DNA of 26,658 nucleotides from Candidatus Binatota bacterium (GTDB lineage: Bacteria > Desulfobacterota > Binatia > Bin18), in NCBI GenBank assembly GCA_011523315.1, contig WTHE01000457.1, forward strand, positions 1 to 26,658, given 5' to 3'. Position numbers and translations under genes: made by a program. The notes below the pieces were generated by a model. That model had not been told where the DNA came from, searched no databases, and was given only the letters and a program-made list of their open reading frames with translations. Shown here in pieces: positions 3,464 through 22,873 of this stretch (its first letter is position 1; every line of letters begins with the position of its first letter).

Positions 3464-4360
3464 GTGAGTATTCTTGTGAATAAAGAGACCAGAGTGGTCA
3501 CCCAGGGCATTACCGGTTCAACCGGTCAGCTCCACACCCGGGCCTGCCGGGAATACGGCACCCAGATGGTGGCCGGCGTGACCCCGGGCCGGGGTGGGAC
3601 CGATTTTGAGGGCATTCCTATTTTTAATACCGTCGCCGAGTCGGTAGCCGCAACCGGCGCCAACGCCTCGGTGATCTATGTCCCCCCGCCGTTTGCCGCC
3701 GACGCGATTCTTGAGGCGGTTGACGCCGAACTCCCGCTGGTGATCTGCATCACCGAGGGCATTCCTATTTTGGACATGATCCGGGTCAAACGCTATATGG
3801 CGGGCAAGGCGTCCCGTCTGATCGGCCCCAACTGTCCCGGCGTCATCACGCCAGGCGAGTGTAAGATCGGCATCATGCCGGGCTATATTCACAAGACGGG
3901 CACCATTGGGGTGGTGTCGCGCAGCGGCACGCTGACCTACGAGGCGGTTCATCAGCTGACCCAGATCGGGATCGGGCAGTCCAGCTGCGTCGGCATCGGC
4001 GGCGATCCGGTCAACGGGACCGGCTTTGTCGATGTGCTGCGCCTGTTCCAGGACGACCCGCAGACCGAAGGGGTGGTGCTGATCGGTGAAATCGGGGGCA
4101 GCGCCGAAGAAGACGCGGCCGCCTTTATCCAGGCTCAGATGACCAAACCCGTGGCCGCCTTTATCGCCGGGCAGACCGCGCCCAAGGGCAAGCGCATGGG
4201 TCACGCCGGGGCGATCATTGCCGGGGGCTCGGGCACGGCCGCAGAAAAAATTCGAGCCTTTGAGCAGGCCGGCGTGCACACGATTCCCAGCCCGGCCGAG
4301 ATGGGGGTAACCATGGCCAGGGCGATGGGCATCGCGGTCGAGGAGCCGGCCGGTTCGTGA
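3464..4360 (+). CDS. sucD: Succinate--CoA ligase alpha subunit
   Basis: QGITG, GVTPG, IGPNCPG and RSGTLTYE motifs, plus phospho-His motif MGHAGA. GTG start preceded by GGAGA. Confidence 0.98.
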
Positions 4361-5445
4361 ACCCCGAGCGCCTGTTTGAGCGCGCCGAACGCGCCCGCCA
4401 CGCCAGCCGCTTTGCCGCCGCTCTCGACCTCTACCGCCAGGCCCGGACCGTCTATGCCAGCGAGGGAGATCCCGACGGAGAGCGCGATGCCTGCATCGGC
4501 ATTGGCGACTGCCTGCGTATGCTGGGACGCTTCGGTCTGGCCAAACGTGCCTATGCCAGGGCGGTCAACCTGTCCGAGGCACTGCACGACCCGGAAGGCT
4601 TGGCTGAGAGCCAGGCCGGTTTCGGTCTCAGCCTGCGCGCCCAGGGCAATCCCGAACGCGCTTTGCCCTATCTCCAGCACGCCCATCGGCTGTACCGCCA
4701 GGCCCAGGCTGCCCAGGGCGAGGGATTCGTCCTGTGGGCGCTCGGCAGCACCTACCGCTTTTGTGGCGATTTGCGCAAGGCGATCAGGCATTTCAAGAAT
4801 GCCTTAGTCCTGGCCCAGCAGCAGGGCGACGAGCCCGGTACCGGCTATGCCCTGTGCGGGTTGGGCGGCGCTTCGCGCCTGATGGGCCGCTTTGCCGATA
4901 CCCAGGACTATTATCAGCGGGCAAACGCGCTGTTCGAGGCCGAAAAAGACACCTATGGGCGCGCCTATTCCTACTGCGGGCTGGGCAATGCCGCACGGAT
5001 GCAGGGCGACTATGCGACGGCCATGCAGCTGTTTGCCAGGGCCGAGCAGCTCTACGCCCGCATTGGTGATACCGCCGGCTTTGCCTATACCGTCTGGGCG
5101 ATGGCCACCGTCCACAAGATGCGCGGCGATTATCCCCGCAGCGCCCAGACCTTTGCCCGGGCTCGGGATCTGTTCCGGAAAACCCGGGATGCCCGTGGCG
5201 GCATCTACTGCCGGCTGGGGACAGGCGAGCTGGCGCTGCTGCGGGGCAGACACAAAACCGCCCAGACCGCTTTTAGCCGCTGTCTGGAGAGGGCCGAGCA
5301 ACTTGGCTATCATGCCGAAGCGTGCCACGCCCGGACCGGGCTGGCCCTGCTCGACGACACGCCCGACTGGGCTGCGGTCAAACAAGCCCACCGTCAGTGC
5401 GGTTTGCACTTCACCCCGCCGCCGCCGCCCTTGAATCTGCCCTGA
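4357..5445 (+). CDS. Standalone tetratricopeptide-like repeat protein (about 8 repeats of 40 aa)
   Basis: 40-aa periodicity of Y/FxxA...GDxxG.AY...LG....GxY..A across the protein. GTGA overlap with the sucD stop. No signal peptide evident. Confidence 0.85.
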
Positions 5446-5487
5446 ACGGGGCGACACGGACGGGGAGATTCCGAACCGGGCGGCGCG

Positions 5488-5516
5488 TTGACCCCCTTTT
5501 GGCCTCCCGCTACACT
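5488..5516 (+). promoter_or_regulatory. Sigma70-type promoter upstream of ndk
   Basis: TTGACC (5488-5493), 17-bp spacer, TACACT (5511-5516), 26 nt before the ndk ATG. Confidence 0.7.
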
Positions 5517-5542
5517 GGCCCGACGCTGAAGAAAGGACCAGC

Positions 5543-5965
5543 ATGAAAGAACGTACCCTGTCGATCATCAAGCCGGACGCCGTGCAAAAGAATGTTGTGG
5601 GTGAGATTCTGGCTCGGTTTGAACGCGCCGGTCTCAAGATCATTGCGGCCAGGCTGCTCCAGCTCAGCAAGGCCGAGGCCCAGGGGTTTTACGCCGTCCA
5701 TAAGGAACGCCCTTTTTTCGACAGCCTGACGACCTTCATGTCGTCCGGACCCATTCTGGTCTCGGTGCTCGAAGGCCAGGACGCCATCCAGACCAACCGG
5801 CGGCTGATGGGCGCGACCAACCCGGCCGAGGCCGAGCCGGGGACGATTCGCAAGGACTTTGCGACCGACATCGAGAAGAATGCCGTCCACGGCTCCGACG
5901 GGCCGGACACCGCCCGCCAGGAAATCGCCTATTTCTTTGGGGAGATGGAGCTCCACACGTCTTAA
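5543..5965 (+). CDS. ndk: Nucleoside diphosphate kinase
   Basis: [26 protein letters not shown] and NAVHGSD (phospho-His) motifs. SD AAAGGA. Confidence 0.98.
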
Positions 5966-6987
5966 TGTCACACGACATTAAAGAACTCAGCCGGGCCGAA
6001 CTTGAGCAGTGGTGCCTCGACAACGGCTACACCACCTTTCGGGCCCGGCAAATCCTGCGCTGGCTCTACCGGCACGGGACCACCAGCTTTGCCGATATGA
6101 GCGATGTGTCGGTCGCCCTGCGGGAACGGCTGGCCGCAGCCTTTTCGATTGGCCGTCTGACCTGCGTGCGGACCTCGGCCGCCGCCGACGGGACGCGCAA
6201 ATACCTGTTTGGTCTGGCCGATGGACGGCGGATCGAGAGTGTTCTGATTCCCGCTCCGGGCCGTCAAACCTTGTGCATCTCGTCCCAGTTTGGCTGTGCG
6301 ATGGGGTGCCAGTTCTGTGCTACGGCGCGGATGCGGCCGGTACGGGACCTGACCGCCGGAGAGATCGTTGGGCAGGTGTGGGAGGTCCAGCGCGAGCTAG
6401 ATGCTGACCAGCAACTGACCAACGTCGTGTTCATGGGCATGGGCGAACCGTTGGCCAACTACGATCAGGTGGTAAAGGCCATTGAGGTGCTGACCGCCGA
6501 GTGGGGGCTTAATTTTTCTCCCCGCCGGGTCACGGTCTCCACGGTTGGGCTGGTGCCGCAGATGCAGCGTCTGTTGGACGAGACCCGGGTCAATCTGACC
6601 GTCTCGCTGAGCGCGACCACCGATGAACTGCGCGCCAGATTGATGCCGGTCAACAGCCGCTATCCCCTCGGGCAGCTGCTCGACGCGTGCCGCAGTCTGC
6701 CGGCCCGCTCGCGGCGACGTCTGACCTTTGCCTACACCATGTTGGCCGGCGTGAACGACGGTCTGACCGACGCCCGGCGGCTGGTCAAACTGCTGCACGG
6801 CATACCCGCCAAGGTCAACCTCATCCCCTTTAACGCTTTTCCCGGCTCGGATTTTACGTCAAGCCCGCGCCTCCACATCGACCGTTTTCGCCAGCTCCTG
6901 TTGGACAAAGGCGTGCTGGCGACGATACGCGAAAGCCGCGGCCAAGATGTCCTGGCCGCGTGCGGCCAGCTGGCGACCCAGGGCTGA
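5965..6987 (+). CDS. rlmN: Dual-specificity RNA methyltransferase RlmN (radical SAM)
   Basis: CISSQFGCAMGCQFC (CxxxCxxC), FMGMGEP, KVNLIPFN and AACGQL motifs. TAATG stop/start overlap with ndk. Confidence 0.95.
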   Translation: MSHDIKELSRAELEQWCLDNGYTTFRARQILRWLYRHGTTSFADMSDVSVALRERLAAAFSIGRLTCVRTSAAADGTRKYLFGLADGRRIESVLIPAPGRQTLCISSQFGCAMGCQFCATARMRPVRDLTAGEIVGQVWEVQRELDADQQLTNVVFMGMGEPLANYDQVVKAIEVLTAEWGLNFSPRRVTVSTVGLVPQMQRLLDETRVNLTVSLSATTDELRARLMPVNSRYPLGQLLDACRSLPARSRRRLTFAYTMLAGVNDGLTDARRLVKLLHGIPAKVNLIPFNAFPGSDFTSSPRLHIDRFRQLLLDKGVLATIRESRGQDVLAACGQLATQG

Positions 6988-16553: not shown

Positions 16554-16994
16554 CTAGGGTGTGCGAGTAACGGACGGTCTGTCCGGGGTCCAGTGTTCGA
16601 CCGCAGCCCGGGCCACCGGGCTGAACACCTCGGCTACACTCTCGACAAGCTGTGACAACCCGACCCAGCGCCGTCGGCGGGCGGTTTCATACGTCGCGCC
16701 CTCGCCGGTGACGCTGGCGGCAAAGAAAAAAAATGGCGTCGCCGCTCCTCCGGCTTCGCCTGCCACCCTGAGCGTGGCCAACAGGCGGCCGACCTCAACC
16801 GTATAGCCACTCTCCTCCGCACACTCCCGGGCGGCTGCTTGCTCCAGGCTTTCTCCCGGCTCGACCGTGCCGACCGGAAAAATCCAGCTACGGGGGTGTT
16901 TGCGGCTGGTAATCAGCAACACCTCGGGCTCGGCCGTGGCCGTGGGGCGGGTGGCCACGACGCCGGCCTTGGCTGGTGGTACATCGAGAGGCAT
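16554..16994 (-). CDS. Nudix hydrolase (resembles the Ap6A/DIPP subfamily)
   Basis: Nudix box GTVEPGESLEQAAARECAEESGY (Gx5Ex7REUxEExGU), preceded by EVLLITSRKHPRSWIFP. Confidence 0.88.
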   Translation of the reverse strand: MPLDVPPAKAGVVATRPTATAEPEVLLITSRKHPRSWIFPVGTVEPGESLEQAAARECAEESGYTVEVGRLLATLRVAGEAGGAATPFFFFAASVTGEGATYETARRRRWVGLSQLVESVAEVFSPVARAAVEHWTPDRPSVTRTP

Positions 16995-17494: not shown

Positions 17495-19072
17495 CTACAG
17501 CGGATAGCGCTCCCGCAGCCGGGCTGCGGCTTCGACCATGACCGCCAGCTTGTGCTCGGCCTGCTGGGCCGAAACGATGGGGTTGTCGGCAAAGGTGGCA
17601 AAGCCGCAGTCCGGGTTGAGCAGCACCCGTTCCGGTCCGAACAGGGCCACGGCGCGCTCAGCCTTGGCCAGCACCTCCTCAAGGCTTTCCGTGGTCTGAT
17701 GCTTCTGGTTGACCACGCCGACGCCGATGCGCGCCTCGGCCGGCAGCGCGGCCAGGATTTCCATATCACCGGCCCGCGGGGTACACATTTCGAGGAAAAA
17801 CGTCCCCACCGGCAGCTTTTGCAGGAGCGGGATGAGCGGCACATAGTCGCCGGCCAGAGCAACGCTCTCGTCCGGGGTCCAGTTGCCGCGACAGATGTGT
17901 ATGCCCAGGCGTTCGCGTGGCAGACCGGCGACGACCTGTCGAATGAGTGATTCGGCGAAGGCGAGTTCGGCTGCGGGTTCGCGTTTTTCTCCCAGGGCAC
18001 CGCACATGAAGGTGCGGTTGGTGAGCGTGCCGCTGAAGACGACCTCGGTCAGAACCGGCTCGTCGAGCTGGACCAGGGACACGCCGGCGGCCAGCAGATG
18101 ATGCACCTCCTCGCGCAGCACCCGGACGATGTCGGTGGCGAGGTCTTCACGGGTGTCGTAGGCCCGGTCTGAGATACACTCCATCCACATCGTCCGGGTC
18201 AACAGGTAGGGGCCGGGCAGGGCGACTTTCAGCGGCGCCGGGGTCAGACCCCGCAAGAACTCGGCCTCGTGAACGGTGAGCGAACGGCTGCGCCCCAGGG
18301 GGCCGAACACTGCGGGATGGCGGACTCTGCCGGCCGGCACGTCCAGGGCGCGCAGCTCGCGCTCAAATTCGTGCGGATCGTCAACATAGGGCAGCAGGTC
18401 GGTGATGGGGATCAGCTGACAGTTGTCGAGCAGGCCACCCACAAAGCTGGCGTAGTTGTCGCGGTGCTGCTCGCCGTCGGTCACGACCTGGACCCCGGCC
18501 CGCTGCTGGGCGGCAACCGCCAGCCGCACCGCGTCTTCGGCCGTGCGGGAAAATTCGTCGTCCGGCATCCGCCCTTCGAGATGGTCGTTCAGCGCCCGCA
18601 GCAACCACGGCGGACGTGGCCAGCTCCCGATGTTCATGACCGACAGCGGGGCAATGGCCGGAGCGGGCTGGGGGGCCGGCAGCCGGTCGGGAATGACCAC
18701 CTCTTTGATCGGCTGGGTGATCGGCGCCGGTTCCCTGTCCGTGCGCGGCGTTCGCGTTTTTTTGTGCCGATTCTTCTGGACAGGTGACGGTGTAGGCGCC
18801 CGGTCGGCCGGCTTGTGATGCGGCCCTTTGGAGACCAGAAAACTGTTCTGCCCGCCGCGCCGGATATGGGACACCAGCTCATTCTTGGTCAGACGACACC
18901 AGGCCGGCAGGTCTTCGACGACCGAGGATTCGGTTGACAGGATCTCGAGCAGCTGGCCGGGGGTGAGCGGATCGATATGTTTGCGGATCAGCAGCAGCAG
19001 GCCGTTTCCGCAGTCGAGATCGCCACCGTCAAAACTGTCGTGCGGCTGGTACGGGTGCTCATCCATTGCCAT
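17495..19072 (-). CDS. Fusion of an N-terminal TusA/SirA-like sulfur-carrier domain and a cobalamin-independent methionine synthase II (Meth_synt_2/MetE C-terminal) catalytic domain
   Basis: aa 8-83: FDGGDLDCGNG...GQLLEILS...EDLPAWC...NELV (TusA pattern). aa 144-525: GSWPRP, TDGEQHR, LPGPY, QLDEP, HICRGN, LE and NPDCGF, giving zinc ligands H392, C394, E428 and C489. True start may be ATG 19066, which has better SD spacing. Confidence 0.88.
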   Translation of the reverse strand: MAMDEHPYQPHDSFDGGDLDCGNGLLLLIRKHIDPLTPGQLLEILSTESSVVEDLPAWCRLTKNELVSHIRRGGQNSFLVSKGPHHKPADRAPTPSPVQKNRHKKTRTPRTDREPAPITQPIKEVVIPDRLPAPQPAPAIAPLSVMNIGSWPRPPWLLRALNDHLEGRMPDDEFSRTAEDAVRLAVAAQQRAGVQVVTDGEQHRDNYASFVGGLLDNCQLIPITDLLPYVDDPHEFERELRALDVPAGRVRHPAVFGPLGRSRSLTVHEAEFLRGLTPAPLKVALPGPYLLTRTMWMECISDRAYDTREDLATDIVRVLREEVHHLLAAGVSLVQLDEPVLTEVVFSGTLTNRTFMCGALGEKREPAAELAFAESLIRQVVAGLPRERLGIHICRGNWTPDESVALAGDYVPLIPLLQKLPVGTFFLEMCTPRAGDMEILAALPAEARIGVGVVNQKHQTTESLEEVLAKAERAVALFGPERVLLNPDCGFATFADNPIVSAQQAEHKLAVMVEAAARLRERYPL

Positions 19073-19126: not shown

Positions 19127-19489
19127 TCAGTACGACACACACGGCGTGCCGTCGGCCAGATACTCGATCAGCTTGGCCCCGCCGACGATCTTCGCCCCCG
19201 GCACCAGACTGTTCTCGTCCAGGCCCCGTTTCTTGAAGCACGGCGAGCACACATAGATCGTCCCGCCGGCCTCGGCGTAGTTCGTCATCAGCTCTTTGAG
19301 GGGCAGAAAGCCGTCTTCACGGATATCGTCGGCATAGCCGTTGACGGCCAGACGCACGCCTTCGGTACTCAAGAATACCAGGGTTTTCTGGTCGGAGCCG
19401 ACTGCGGCATTGGCAATCACAAAGGCGACGGTGGCTTTATCCGGGTTGTCTTTGGCGTGGGTGAGAGAAACACAGAATTTACCTGGCAT
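19127..19489 (-). CDS. DsrE/DsrF-family sulfur relay protein (120 aa)
   Basis: DKATVAFVIANAA, VFLSTEGVRL, GGTIYVCSPCFKKRGL and IVGGAKLIEY match the DsrE-like fold pattern. ATG 19489 follows AGGAGG (the track's 19570 extension is not supported). Confidence 0.88.
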   Translation of the reverse strand: MPGKFCVSLTHAKDNPDKATVAFVIANAAVGSDQKTLVFLSTEGVRLAVNGYADDIREDGFLPLKELMTNYAEAGGTIYVCSPCFKKRGLDENSLVPGAKIVGGAKLIEYLADGTPCVSY

Positions 19490-19529: not shown

Positions 19530-19558
19530 ATCATAGCCAGCCGTACCGGGTCCCGCAA
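19530..19558 (-). promoter_or_regulatory. Sigma70-type promoter for the dsrE operon
   Basis: Minus strand TTGCGG (19558-19553), 17-bp spacer, TATGAT (19535-19530). Confidence 0.55.
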
Positions 19559-19679: not shown

Positions 19680-20978
19680 ATGAGTGCCAACCAGACGAAG
19701 GATCGCCAATACGGATTCAGCACCCGTCAGCTGCACGCCGGCCAACAGCCCGATCCAACCACCGGCAGTCGGGCGGTGCCGATCTACCAGACGACCTCCT
19801 ATCAGTTCAAAGACACCGGGCACGCGGCCGACCTGTTTGCTCTCAAAGAGCCCGGCAATATCTATACCCGCATCATGAATCCGACCAACGATGTCCTGGA
19901 GCAGCGCCTGGCCTCGCTCGAAGGCGGGGTCGGCGCCCTGGTTTCCAGCAGCGGCCACGCGGCCCAGATGATGGCTATCATGGCCCTGTGCGGGCAGGGC
20001 GATCATATCGTCAGCAGTAGCCGCCTGTACGGCGGGACGTATAACCAGTTCACCCACACCTTTCCGCGCATGGGGATTACGACGACCTTTGTCGATCCGA
20101 CCAAACCCGAGGAGTTTGCCGCTGCGGTCCAGCCCAACACCAAGATTCTGTACGGTGAGACCCTGGGCAACCCGGACATTACGGTTTTCCCGTTCGACGA
20201 GGTGTCCGAGGTGTCGCGGACCAAGCGCGTGCCGTTCATGCTGGACAACACCTTTGCCACGCCCTACCTGTGCCGGCCGTTTGAGTGGGGGGCGCACATT
20301 GTGACCCACAGCACGACCAAGTTTCTGAGTGGGCACGGCACGGCGATTGGAGGGGCGATTGTTGACGGCGGCAATTTTGACTGGCGCAGCGGACGCTTCC
20401 CCAATTTCACCGAACCGGACCCGTCCTACCACGGCTTGGTGTACGCCGACCTGGGCGCCCCGGCCATGATTCTCAAGTCTCGCGTGCAGATCCTGCGCGA
20501 CGTGGGTGGCTGCCAGGCGCCGTTTGACAGTTTCACCACCTTGCTCGGGGTTGAGACGCTGAGTCTGCGTATGCAGCGGCATGTCGAAAACGCCCAGCAG
20601 GTGGCCGAGTTTCTCGACACCCACCCCGGGGTCGAGTCGGTCGCCTTTCCCGGTCTGGCCCAGCATCCGGACCACGCCAGAGCCCAGAAATATCTCCCCC
20701 GCGGCGCCGGATCGATCCTGGGCTTTCGGATCAGGGGCGGGCGTGTGGCGGGCGAGACCTTCATCAACAGCCTCACACTCCACAGTCATGTGGCCAATGT
20801 CGGGGATGCCAAGAGCCTGGCCATTCACCCGGCCAGTACGACCCACAGCCAGCTCAACGAGGACGAGCTGCTGAGCGCCGGGGTGTCGCCCGATTTCGTC
20901 CGGCTGAGTGTCGGTATAGAAGACATTGATGACATTGTGTGGGACCTGGACCAAGCCCTCAGGACGGCCAGCAGCTAG
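19680..20978 (+). CDS. metY: O-acetylhomoserine aminocarboxypropyltransferase (sulfhydrylase)
   Basis: AVPIYQTTSY, YTRIMNPT, HSTTKFLSGHG (PLP-Lys), ETLSLRMQRH, NVGDAKSL and RLSVGIE motifs. SD GAGGGAG. Confidence 0.92.
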   Translation: MSANQTKDRQYGFSTRQLHAGQQPDPTTGSRAVPIYQTTSYQFKDTGHAADLFALKEPGNIYTRIMNPTNDVLEQRLASLEGGVGALVSSSGHAAQMMAIMALCGQGDHIVSSSRLYGGTYNQFTHTFPRMGITTTFVDPTKPEEFAAAVQPNTKILYGETLGNPDITVFPFDEVSEVSRTKRVPFMLDNTFATPYLCRPFEWGAHIVTHSTTKFLSGHGTAIGGAIVDGGNFDWRSGRFPNFTEPDPSYHGLVYADLGAPAMILKSRVQILRDVGGCQAPFDSFTTLLGVETLSLRMQRHVENAQQVAEFLDTHPGVESVAFPGLAQHPDHARAQKYLPRGAGSILGFRIRGGRVAGETFINSLTLHSHVANVGDAKSLAIHPASTTHSQLNEDELLSAGVSPDFVRLSVGIEDIDDIVWDLDQALRTASS

Positions 20979-21009
20979 CGCTCCGGCGGAGAGCTGACCG
21001 AGACAACCC

Positions 21010-22230
21010 ATGAGCAGTACTGGCGATGTCGGCGCTGTCCAGCCGCACCAATTCACCTTCGCCCAGCAGCAGCCGTTTCCGCTCGACAGCGGGGCTACGC
21101 TGAGCCCGGTCAGCCTCACCTATGAGACCTATGGCCAGCTGAACGCGGACCGCTCGAACGCCATTCTGATCACCCATGCGTTGAGCGGGAGTGCCCACGC
21201 CGCCGGCCACTACGAGCCCGAGGACGGGCGTCTGGGCTGGTGGGACGACTGCATCGGACCGGGCAAAGCCTTCGATACCGACCGGTTCTTTGTCATCTGC
21301 AGCAACGTCCTGGGCGGCTGTTACGGCTCGACCGGTCCGACCCATATCGATCCGGCCACCCAGACGCCGTACGGCATGCGTTTCCCGGTGGTGACCATAG
21401 GCGATATGGTTCGCGCCCAGGTTCGGCTGGTGGATTACCTGGAGATTGACCAGCTGCTATGCGTGGCCGGCGGCTCCATGGGCGGTATGCAGGCCCTGGA
21501 GTGGGCGGCCGCGTATCCGCAGCGCGTCCGGGCGGCCATCCCGATCGCCACCACGGCCCACCACAGCCCGATGCTGATCGCGCTGAGCGAGGTCGGCCGC
21601 CAGGCCATTTACGCCGACCCGGCCTGGAATAACGGCGATTATCATGACGCCGAGGTCAAGCCCGACGCCGGGCTGGCGGTGGCCCGGATGGTCGGCCACA
21701 TTACCTATTTGAGCGAAGAGTCCATGCAGCAGAAGTTCGGCCGCCGTTTGCAGGACCGCGTCCGCTACGGCTATGAATTTCGGACCGAGTTTCAGGTTGA
21801 GAGCTATCTGAAATACAAGGGCAATAATTTTACCCGTCGGTTTGACGCCAACAGCTATCTGTATATCACCAAGGCGATGGACTATTTCGACCTGAGCGCC
21901 GCGACCGGTTCCCTGGCCGCCGCGTTTGCCAACTCGGCCGCGCTCAAATACCTGGTCGTCAGCTTTACCAGCGACTGGCTGTATCCGAGCTATCACAGCA
22001 AGGAGCTGGTCAGCGCGCTGACCGCCGCCGGGGCCGATGTCACCTATCTCGACGTGCAGAGTTCGTGGGGACACGACGCGTTTCTGCTCGAAGTCGAGAC
22101 CATGACCAGCTTACTCGGCAGTTTTCTTGACCGCCTGGTCCACGATGAGGACATCGCTCTGCCCGCCGGCCCCTCGTCCCATCCGCCGACCCGCAATCAC
22201 AAAGGGCGGAAGACCGGGGTGGCCGCATGA
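21010..22230 (+). CDS. metX: Homoserine O-acyl(acetyl)transferase
   Basis: HALSG, GGSMGGMQA (nucleophile Ser), ARMVGHITY, RFDANSY, SDWLYP and GHDAFL motifs. Acetyl versus succinyl specificity not determinable by eye. Confidence 0.93.
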   Translation: MSSTGDVGAVQPHQFTFAQQQPFPLDSGATLSPVSLTYETYGQLNADRSNAILITHALSGSAHAAGHYEPEDGRLGWWDDCIGPGKAFDTDRFFVICSNVLGGCYGSTGPTHIDPATQTPYGMRFPVVTIGDMVRAQVRLVDYLEIDQLLCVAGGSMGGMQALEWAAAYPQRVRAAIPIATTAHHSPMLIALSEVGRQAIYADPAWNNGDYHDAEVKPDAGLAVARMVGHITYLSEESMQQKFGRRLQDRVRYGYEFRTEFQVESYLKYKGNNFTRRFDANSYLYITKAMDYFDLSAATGSLAAAFANSAALKYLVVSFTSDWLYPSYHSKELVSALTAAGADVTYLDVQSSWGHDAFLLEVETMTSLLGSFLDRLVHDEDIALPAGPSSHPPTRNHKGRKTGVAA

Positions 22231-22270
22231 GGGTGCAGCCGCTTCGCGCGTTCTGCCCCCAGGCCGCTCC

Positions 22271-22873
22271 GTGAACCCTGTCGGTCTGCGTTCCGATCTG
22301 CTGGTGATTGCCGAGCTGGTCCCCTCCCAGGTCCGTATTCTTGACCTGGGGTGTGGGGACGGTGCCCTGCTGGAGTATCTCGTCCGTGAGAAACAGGTGA
22401 CTGGACGGGGCATTGAGCTGGGCGAGGCTGGGGTTCTGACCTGCGTCCGGCGCGGTTTGAGCGTGCGCCAGGGCAACCTCGAAGAGGGACTGGCCGATTA
22501 TCCGGCGGCCAGTTTCGACTATGTGATCCTGAGCCAGACGCTGCCGTTTCTGGACGATCCGGCCATGATCGTCGAGGAGATGCTGCGGGTCGGCAAACAG
22601 GCGATTGTCAGTTTTCCCAACTGGGGCTATTGGCGGTGCCGGTTTGAGCTGCTGCTGACCGGGCGTATTCCGCACGCCTCCGACCTGCCCGAACGCTGGC
22701 ACGAGACGCCCCGCTGGCAGGCCTTCACGGTGGCCGATTTTGGCGACTTCTGCCGCCGGCTGGGGGTGCGTATTACGCAGGAGCGCTATCTGGCCCACAC
22801 GCGCCGCCTGAAAAATATCCGCTATAAGAATCTGCGGGCGACGACCGCAGTGTTCAGTCTGGAAAAATGCTGA
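22271..22873 (+). CDS. metW: Methionine biosynthesis protein MetW
   Basis: RSDLLVIAELV, ILDLGCGDG, FDYVILSQTL and VSFPNWGYWR motifs, directly after metX. Start set at GTG 22271 (the track's 22127 overlaps metX). Confidence 0.88.
   Translation: MNPVGLRSDLLVIAELVPSQVRILDLGCGDGALLEYLVREKQVTGRGIELGEAGVLTCVRRGLSVRQGNLEEGLADYPAASFDYVILSQTLPFLDDPAMIVEEMLRVGKQAIVSFPNWGYWRCRFELLLTGRIPHASDLPERWHETPRWQAFTVADFGDFCRRLGVRITQERYLAHTRRLKNIRYKNLRATTAVFSLEKC

Follow-up and report, generated by a model that had tools for sequence, protein, structure and literature searches.

Introduction

Methionine synthases and the TusA/DsrE sulfur relays are both textbook systems, and we know of no described link between the two. 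Here we describe a gene that brings them together: in a 26,658 nt stretch of DNA from a Candidatus Binatota bacterium (positions 1 to 26,658 of the forward strand of contig WTHE01000457.1, assembly GCA_011523315.1; hereafter the window), a TusA-like carrier domain is fused to a single barrel of the MetE type, next to a gene for a DsrE-like protein. The closest described enzyme is MesD (Acinetobacter ACIAD3523/3524, with a structure, 3RPD, from Shewanella), which requires an unexplained accessory partner protein (Price et al., 2021; PMC7857596). MesD has a specific insertion in which a conserved residue, Tyr226, contacts the substrate carboxylate; in MesA and MesC, a Gln replaces Glu484 of MetE, and the methyl donor is a corrinoid protein (PMC7857596). 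Price et al. limited their candidates to proteins of no more than 400 amino acids (PMC7857596), a limit that would have left out the family of the fusion.

The fusion was noticed in a reading of the sequence made without database searches (the original prediction), whose author knew of no characterised member of the superfamily with a tethered sulfur carrier; we likewise found none in the literature, and no paper on the fusion or on the gene cassette to which it belongs. As judged from sequence, this cassette points to sulfur or selenium chemistry on homocysteine, and not to an ordinary methionine synthase, and the chemistry is possibly new.

Results

A TusA-like domain fused to a predicted zinc enzyme

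The fusion gene (P0001) lies on the minus strand, which the original prediction had not mentioned, encodes 525 amino acids and is preceded by an AGGAG ribosome-binding site 3-4 nt 5' of its ATG (Table 1). The original prediction described an N-terminal TusA-pattern domain (DGGDLDCGNG, with C21, and DLPAWC, with C59) and one Meth_synt_2 barrel with a complete zinc site (H392, C394, E428 and C489) and no folate-binding half. Both parts were borne out by profile searches and alignments, and the residue numbers were all correct. Pfam TusA matches residues 26-82 (32.9 bits against a cut-off of 28.6) and Meth_synt_2 (PF01717) matches residues 250-517 (91 bits against 21); since folate-binding Meth_synt_1 (PF08267) gave only a sub-threshold match over 37 residues (16.6 bits against 27), the protein has one barrel and lacks the folate half. 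It falls far under all NCBIfam cut-offs for methionine synthase equivalogs, the best being PRK04326 (161 bits against 406), with the MetE equivalog TIGR01371 at 71.9 bits against 929.95.

The four zinc ligands are invariant in 51 homologues, as are S150, E201 and D337, which align with the homocysteine-binding triad Ser22, Glu73 and Asp188 of MesD (3RPD); in the MesD structure these residues hold selenomethionine (PMC7857596). With the predicted zinc ligands and the Ser/Glu/Asp triad both in place, the barrel has the sequence features of the MetE/Mes superfamily (PF01717). A Foldseek search ranked MesD 3RPD first (template-modelling (TM) score 0.81 over the target, 25% identity), followed by MetE C-terminal barrels. 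Together these results show that the fusion is a member of a large family of predicted zinc enzymes with a MetE/MesD barrel.

In the carrier domain, C21 ('DLDCGNG') aligns with Cys19 ('LRCPEP') of E. coli TusA (1DCJ/3LVJ) and C59 with Cys56, and both are invariant in the 51 homologues. The gathering score, the fold and the Cys at the Cys19 position are those of TusA (PF01206); the canonical CPxP is absent from the fused domain, where the motif reads C-G-N-G, and the match to the TusA equivalog NF001423 falls well short (26.4 bits; cut-off 78). In a model of the fusion made with AlphaFold2 (AF2; mean predicted local distance difference test (pLDDT) score 83), residues 12-81 adopt the TusA fold, beta-alpha-beta-alpha-beta-beta. 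The linker of roughly 60 residues that the original prediction called rich in Pro and Lys has 15 Pro, 6 Arg and 5 Lys among the 60 residues 84-143. Just residues ~84-116 are variable and predicted to be disordered, with pLDDT of ~41 at residues 90-111, and this tether differs in length and sequence among homologues; residues 117-143 ('APITQPI..V.IP..LP.P.PAP') are conserved and predicted to be ordered (pLDDT 91-97, without secondary structure), and we infer that this peptide packs on the barrel.

More than 6000 homologues of the fusion came up in a protein search, at about 67% identity across phyla. The first 120 of them are about equal to it in length, 66-97% identical and mostly matched by both Pfam domains; they come from Binatia, Actinomycetota, Planctomycetota, Burkholderiales and others. 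A species-level genome collection holds at least 584 confirmed fusion loci in at least ten phyla, with about 65% identity across phyla; the nearest are in Candidatus Binatia metagenome-assembled genomes. The original prediction would have been undone by a one-off fusion, and the strong conservation across species genomes shows that it is not one. Occurrence is patchy (7 of 201 Burkholderiales genomes, 2 of 151 from Chloroflexota and, in a further phylum, 3 of 301), and given this patchiness together with the very high identity across phyla, the genes resemble an accessory module that has spread horizontally. Among the carriers in culture are Duganella alba, D. levis, Paraburkholderia sp. J67 and Burkholderia multivorans WS-FJ9.

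An extra cysteine with a probable selenocysteine counterpart

Among the 51 sequences, two further cysteines absent from the original prediction, C299 and C357, are invariant and a third, C218, is kept in at least 90%. Of the three, C357 ('TFMC') alone is kept in unfused paralogues at 41-44% identity, C218 and C299 being lost. The loop that carries it (residues 349-360) is predicted by AF2 to be flexible and lies between the strand ending in D337 and the one on which H392 and C394 sit, which would place C357 on the catalytic face of the barrel.

We searched the DNA of the genome collection for a selenocysteine (Sec) form of this motif, as M-TGA-[GA] followed after 28-37 codons by HxCRGNW. At least 120 stretches match, where ~0.5 would be expected by chance (an estimate from the specificity of the pattern); a stricter pattern, M-U-[GA]-A ... 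H-[IV]-C-R-G-N-W, had given no matches, and a whole-genome protein search of two phyla (151 and 301 genomes) found Cys forms only. All 80 of the loci that we fetched encode a barrel 39-46% identical to that of the fusion, with an in-frame TGA exactly at the position of C357 in the motif 'RRTFM-U-ATLATR'. A near-invariant, GC-rich hairpin of 6 bp (ACCCGC-CGUGAU-GCGGGU) lies 12 nt 3' of the TGA. Counted directly, 93% of its cells are paired, with a few G-U changes, one compensatory change and almost no covariation; RNAalifold did not recover a hairpin like a selenocysteine insertion sequence from these loci, which vary too little for it and for covariation statistics. When its TGA is read as U, the gene of Desulfopila aestuarii DSM 18488 matches Meth_synt_2 from end to end. 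The Sec form occurs in many phyla, Desulfobulbus alkaliphilus DSM 24258 being another example. A MesD-like paralogue on a Binatia chromosome (L117, G003:C1:5604734-5605771), reported with one in-frame TGA, was set aside; it does not belong to the FMC family, and its TGA falls outside the aligned conserved region.

Since the TGA stands exactly where C357 does and is followed by a conserved hairpin, the position in this sister family reads as selenocysteine, and the TGA-containing MetE-like barrels are probably a selenoprotein family. Exchange of Cys and Sec is a hallmark of a redox or nucleophilic catalytic residue, and we know of no MetE or Mes enzyme among those characterised that possesses or requires a catalytic Cys or Sec. 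Given that C357 is kept in distant paralogues and exchanged for Sec in the sister family, it is a candidate catalytic residue, and its presence argues for chalcogen or redox chemistry over plain methyl transfer. The text of a 2026 review of selenoproteomes (PMC13188914) mentions neither MetE nor homocysteine nor TusA, nor a MetE-like Sec family.

Cysteine-carrier partners in three subfamilies

We compared gene neighbourhoods over 80 fusion loci. A DsrE-like gene adjoins the fusion in 71 of them, across many phyla, and most of the misses are at contig ends. Its product scores 57.3 bits against Pfam DsrE (PF02635; cut-off 22.7), has the features of that family, matches no NCBIfam equivalog and carries an invariant CxxC (C81-S-P-C84, in 'VCSPCFKKRG'). 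In nearly all loci from outside the Binatia, a standalone TusA paralogue precedes dsrE; it has the same unusual 'GCG ... EDLPAWCR' motifs as the fused domain, and the housekeeping TusA of the source genome has a CPxP-type motif instead. De novo clustering of neighbouring open reading frames (ORFs) at the 80 loci revealed no conserved partner beyond DsrE, TusA and an importer of the PhnCDE type. In Duganella, a second DsrE gene overlaps the 3' end of the fusion gene, and in the planctomycete CP036290 the standalone TusA (L013:6909-7613) has an N-terminal extension of ~160 residues with CxxC pairs, possibly a zinc ribbon.

The related barrels keep similar company. Sufficient upstream DNA was available at 55 Sec-type loci, and in 48 of these TusA-like and DsrE-like genes precede the barrel; in Desulfopila the order is TusA, DsrE, TusA::OsmC, Sec-barrel, such that the TusA domain is tethered to the barrel in the fusion family and to OsmC in the Sec sister cassettes. 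Downstream of the unfused Cys-type paralogues, seen in two phyla, come genes for an OsmC-like protein and a tandem rhodanese. Thus, three subfamilies independently tie a MetE-type barrel to cysteine-carrier or sulfurtransferase proteins. DsrE-like proteins (UxxC), OsmC-like proteins and rhodanese-related proteins are themselves selenoprotein families, the first two classed as thiol-dependent redox selenoproteins (PMC1088965). The sulfur-carrier interpretation of the original prediction stands to the extent that the fusion is real, widespread and found in a conserved cysteine-carrier context (DsrE and standalone TusA, with rhodanese and OsmC in the sister families).

The same partners could be read as those of a thiol-dependent reductase of oxidised forms of methionine or homocysteine (for instance free methionine sulfoxide, homocystine or mixed disulfides), in which C357 or Sec would attack the substrate and the cysteines of the TusA domain and the DsrE CxxC would resolve the sulfenate or disulfide so formed. 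The exchange of Cys and Sec at C357 resembles that in reductases of the MsrA/MsrB type, the partner DsrE has a CxxC motif, sister cassettes have TusA joined to OsmC, whose fold is that of a thiol peroxidase, and the methionine-binding pocket is kept. We nonetheless regard a reductase as very unlikely, given that TusA, DsrE and rhodanese are families of sulfur transfer and not of disulfide reduction, that no thioredoxin or reductase is conserved nearby and that zinc has no known role in such reductions.

The importer and the selenium-related genes

The PhnCDE-type ABC importer lies between dsrE and the fusion in ~11-15 Burkholderiales loci and just upstream of the cassette in a Rokubacteria locus (L071). 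In Duganella alba (L068/L120), for example, PhnD/PhnE/PhnC-type genes occupy positions 3483-5967 between the two. The one subfamily cut-off that its binding protein exceeds is that for phosphate/phosphite/phosphonate. In one Burkholderiales clade (L111 and L112, that is, G204:C27 and G348:C167; also L061 and L072), a GST gene and then a convergent selD operon come after the cassette. In the source genome, selD (L102, contig C28:258-1205) has one in-frame TGA, so its SelD would be of the Sec type and the organism would decode selenocysteine.

These surroundings bear on the possibility that the cassette handles selenium, with the cysteine pairs carrying it as a selenotrisulfide or perselenide (from imported selenite or (methyl)selenium compounds, for example) and the barrel processing selenohomocysteine or selenomethionine or supplying selenide to SelD. 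The importer would be one for oxyanions, its binding protein being distantly related to the TIGR04553 'putative selenate' binding family; the selD operon of the Burkholderiales clade, with its cystathionine-beta-synthase-like gene, is 2.5 kb from the cassette; 3RPD binds selenomethionine; and Methanococcus maripaludis starved of selenium induces TusA/TusD-like genes (PMC11097638). However, the importer's binding protein scores 77 bits against a selenate-family cut-off of 250, the cassette in the window has no importer, and the adjacency to selD is confined to one narrow clade at 88-96% identity. We also considered the co-occurrence of selD, which is present in all 11 carrier genomes tested directly, and rejected it as evidence: the background is 157 of 201 Burkholderiales genomes (78%) and 107 of 151 Chloroflexota (71%), and two of the seven Burkholderiales carriers have no selD match, such that there is no enrichment. 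We therefore consider selenium handling of this kind to be quite improbable.

Proximity to methionine biosynthesis

In nine Binatia loci, the cassette is arranged head-to-head with metY-metX-metW. This and the intact catalytic residues would fit a true methionine synthase that needs neither folate nor B12, effectively a fifth family of the 'Mes' kind, that would pass methyl from an unknown donor to zinc-bound homocysteine; C357 or Sec would serve as a methyl-relay nucleophile in place of cobalamin, or the TusA/DsrE relay would keep C357 and the zinc-thiolate site, which is prone to oxidation, reduced. The residues for homocysteine methyl transfer are complete and the nearest structure is that of MesD, an enzyme that also needs an unexplained partner protein (PMC7857596); full-length MetE is missing from 9 of 11 carrier genomes, 10 of 11 of which have MetH. 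Other observations fit a methionine synthase poorly. The cassette has no conserved methyl donor, whether as a protein or as a domain, and a scan with Rfam found neither S-adenosylmethionine (SAM) nor B12 riboswitches at 11 loci. The known cargo of TusA, DsrE and rhodanese carriers is sulfane sulfur and not methyl, and a methyl bound in a Cys thioether lacks the chemical competence to be donated. In Duganella alba and Paraburkholderia sp. J67 the cassette coexists with both MetE and MetH, and the source genome already holds MetH and a core synthase of the PRK09121 type. Lastly, the patchy occurrence noted above (7 of 201 Burkholderiales, 2 of 151 Chloroflexota), at ~65% identity, is more like that of an accessory function, horizontally spread. 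On balance we think a methionine synthase unlikely, albeit a possibility to be taken seriously.

The PRK09121-type 'methionine synthase' of the source genome (341 aa; L003:1495-2520, contig C656) scores 400.7 against a cut-off of 392. It is present though no MesX (DUF1852) was found in that genome, which has at least five other Meth_synt_2 loci.

Other features of the window

The operon in the window runs dsrE-like gene, fusion, a small gene with a molybdenum (Mo)-oxidoreductase fold, NUDIX gene, with metY-metX-metW divergent from it (Table 1). A candidate promoter lies upstream of the dsrE-like gene; its 'GGCTATGAT' block and the upstream TTG are kept in 10 of 10 aligned Binatia intergenic regions, and a consensus scan had omitted it, the -35 element matching at 3 of 6 positions. 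The 161-residue Mo-oxidoreductase-like protein matches just the C-terminal part of the Mo-binding domain of sulfite oxidase, and an overlapping NUDIX gene comes next. We do not count either gene as part of the cassette, as they accompany it in the nearest relatives only (2 of 80 loci, plus L017/L018); metYXW was likewise rejected, being lineage-specific and found with the cassette in Binatia only (9 of 80 loci). The metW ORF overlaps metX by ~100 nt, and its homologues are 217 aa long, such that the true start is probably further downstream.

Table 1. Positions of the fusion gene, its parts and neighbouring features (numbered in the window unless a locus is given)
Feature	Position	Strand	Basis or remark
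NUDIX hydrolase, last gene of the co-directional run	16554..16994	-	Pfam
Small sulfite-oxidase-fold (Oxidored_molyb) protein, 161 aa	16998..17483	-	Pfam, 63.6 bits; starts 11 nt after the fusion stop
Fusion gene P0001	17495..19072	-	ORF and translation, Pfam TusA plus Meth_synt_2, homologues
Fusion start codon	19070..19072	-	ATG
Fusion stop codon	17495..17497	-	TAG
TusA-like carrier domain, aa 10-83	18824..19045	-	Alignment to E. coli TusA/YhhP (1DCJ, 3LVJ), AF2 fold
C21 codon	19010..19012	-	Aligned with E. coli TusA Cys19
C59 codon	18896..18898	-	'DLPAWC'; aligned with E. coli TusA Cys56
Variable, basic, Pro-rich flexible tether, aa 84-116	18725..18823	-	Homologue variation, low pLDDT
Conserved extended peptide, aa 117-143	18644..18724	-	Conservation across phyla, high pLDDT
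MetE-type (beta-alpha)8 barrel, aa 144-525	17498..18643	-	Pfam/NCBIfam, 3RPD alignment, Foldseek
C357 codon ('RTFMCGALG')	18002..18004	-	Candidate extra catalytic cysteine
H392 codon, zinc ligand	17897..17899	-	
C394 codon, zinc ligand	17891..17893	-	
E428 codon, zinc ligand	17789..17791	-	
C489 codon, zinc ligand	17606..17608	-	
dsrE-like gene, 120 aa, first gene of the operon	19127..19489	-	Pfam DsrE; start from ribosome-binding site AAGGAGG and 120-aa homologues
Candidate sigma-70 promoter of the dsrE-fusion operon	19530..19558	-	TTGCGG, 17 nt, TATGAT
metY	19680..20978	+	Pfam Cys_Met_Meta_PP
metX	21010..22230	+	Pfam Abhydrolase_1
metW ORF (metY to metW together 19680..22873)	22127..22873	+	Pfam MetW
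Sec-form barrel gene, Desulfopila aestuarii DSM 18488	L199:3382-4509	-	

Discussion

A proposed cysteine relay to zinc-bound homocysteine

We tentatively favour, at somewhat less than even confidence, a reading in which cysteines acting as a relay trade sulfane sulfur, selenium or redox equivalents with homocysteine bound to zinc, with no methyl transfer of the folate or corrinoid type. Zinc would activate the thiol of bound homocysteine, or of a seleno or oxidised analogue, and C357, whose loop would be mobile and cover the active site, would make a covalent S-S or S-Se intermediate with the substrate, perhaps forming or resolving a homocysteine persulfide, an S-sulfonate or a mixed (seleno)disulfide. 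The chalcogen atom or disulfide would then pass from C357 to C21/C59 of the TusA domain and on to the DsrE CxxC (and to standalone TusA or rhodanese where present), or in reverse, with the TusA domain shuttling to DsrE on its tether of ~30 residues. The enzyme would thereby link a relay of protein-bound sulfane sulfur, possibly selenium, to the homocysteine/methionine pool; in Binatia it would do so beside metY-metX-metW.

Several results are consistent with such a relay. The zinc ligands and the homocysteine triad are invariant, and the nearest fold is that of MesD with bound selenomethionine. The adjoining DsrE with its invariant CxxC, the standalone TusA paralogue, the exchange of C357 for Sec, the predicted place of C357 on the catalytic face and the carrier genes beside the sister families are likewise in line with it. 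No folate domain, MesX, corrinoid protein or other conserved neighbour accompanies the fusion at the 80 loci, the absence of riboswitches at the 11 scanned loci is in keeping with this, and the source genome already has MetH and the PRK09121-type core synthase.

Other points weigh against it. Every characterised enzyme with a MetE-type barrel and homocysteine pocket methylates homocysteine, to our knowledge, and we know of no established physiological need for an intermediate such as homocysteine persulfide. The head-to-head arrangement with metY-metX-metW in Binatia would suit a terminal methionine synthase, and the absence of full-length MetE from 9 of 11 carrier genomes, with MetH in 10 of 11, is the pattern of a B12-independent back-up synthase. 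A complex prediction for the fusion and DsrE scored 0.02, which is evidence neither for nor against binding.

We have also considered whether the relay could embody a new enzymatic principle, in which a MetE-type zinc site, a catalytic Cys or Sec and a persulfide/perselenide relay would together act directly on the chalcogen of homocysteine or methionine, by installing, repairing or removing it; we judge this improbable. One possible form would be the loading of carrier-bound sulfur or selenium onto the methionine pathway independently of pyridoxal phosphate, folate and B12. Another possible form would be a methionine synthase that takes methyl from methylated sulfur or selenium compounds, with the relay capturing the released chalcogen.

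Whatever the reaction, an enzyme of the MetE type with an extra Cys/Sec nucleophile is hard-wired to carriers in hundreds of species. Knowing what it does would fill a gap in how sulfur or selenium reaches the homocysteine/methionine node, account for several selenoprotein families that are now orphans (DsrE-like, OsmC-like and rhodanese-like), add a selenoprotein family absent from the text of the 2026 review (PMC13188914) and correct thousands of 'methionine synthase' annotations. The cultured carriers make the cassette directly testable.

Comparison with known systems

The original prediction framed the barrel as being of the MesA-D type. This holds as an analogy, the fusion having a single barrel and MesD being its nearest structure; it does not extend to membership, as the defining features of MesD, MetE and MesA/MesC are lacking. 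The likeness to MesD is the closest: both have a single MetE-type barrel without a folate domain, with the same zinc ligands and Ser/Glu/Asp pocket, and MesD is the best match of the fusion in sequence (3RPD, E = 1.9e-25) as well as in fold (TM 0.81). We also count as a likeness the dependence of MesD on an accessory protein and its occurrence in aerobes. However, the fusion is just 24-27% identical to MesD, and the TusA domain, the C357 loop insertion and the DsrE partner are all absent from MesD. The position of Tyr226 in 3RPD ('HICYGYG') is N397 in the fusion ('HICRGNW'). No match to mesX (DUF1852, PF08908) was found in the source genome, which is 87.7% complete, a weak result given that control genomes also gave none; nor was mesX found among the called neighbours at nine loci, and no such ORF cluster is conserved in the 80.

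Like MetE (TIGR01371), the fusion has a zinc site, residues for homocysteine binding and a barrel that folds as the C-terminal catalytic one of MetE does. It differs in having no N-terminal folate barrel, in its low identity (~20%), in its additional candidate catalytic Cys and in its carrier partners. Judged by the described features of MesA and MesC, it is unlike them in that E201 is retained and invariant, and no gene for a corrinoid protein is conserved nearby at the 80 loci.

The carrier side of the cassette resembles the persulfide relays of TusA and DsrE (TusA-TusBCD-TusE, Rhd-TusA-DsrEFH-DsrC and DsrE3-TusA), with a TusA-fold Cys at the Cys19 position beside a DsrE-fold Cys, and with a rhodanese in a sister cassette. 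Unlike in those relays, the cassette motif is C-G-[NS]-G and not CPxP, there is a conserved second Cys, DsrE carries a CxxC and the place of the tRNA thiolase, DsrC or sHdr as terminal client is taken by a MetE-type zinc enzyme; we found no MetE-type client of a TusA/DsrE relay described in the papers that we searched. The DsrE-like, OsmC-like and rhodanese-related selenoproteins (PMC1088965) belong to the same families as the partners seen here, have a redox motif in the same place and show the same interchange of Sec and Cys, but were catalogued as stand-alone families of unknown function. By its sequence, the fusion is a member of none of MesD, MetE and MesA/MesC, and comes closest to a core enzyme of the MesD type with a TusA/DsrE relay attached.

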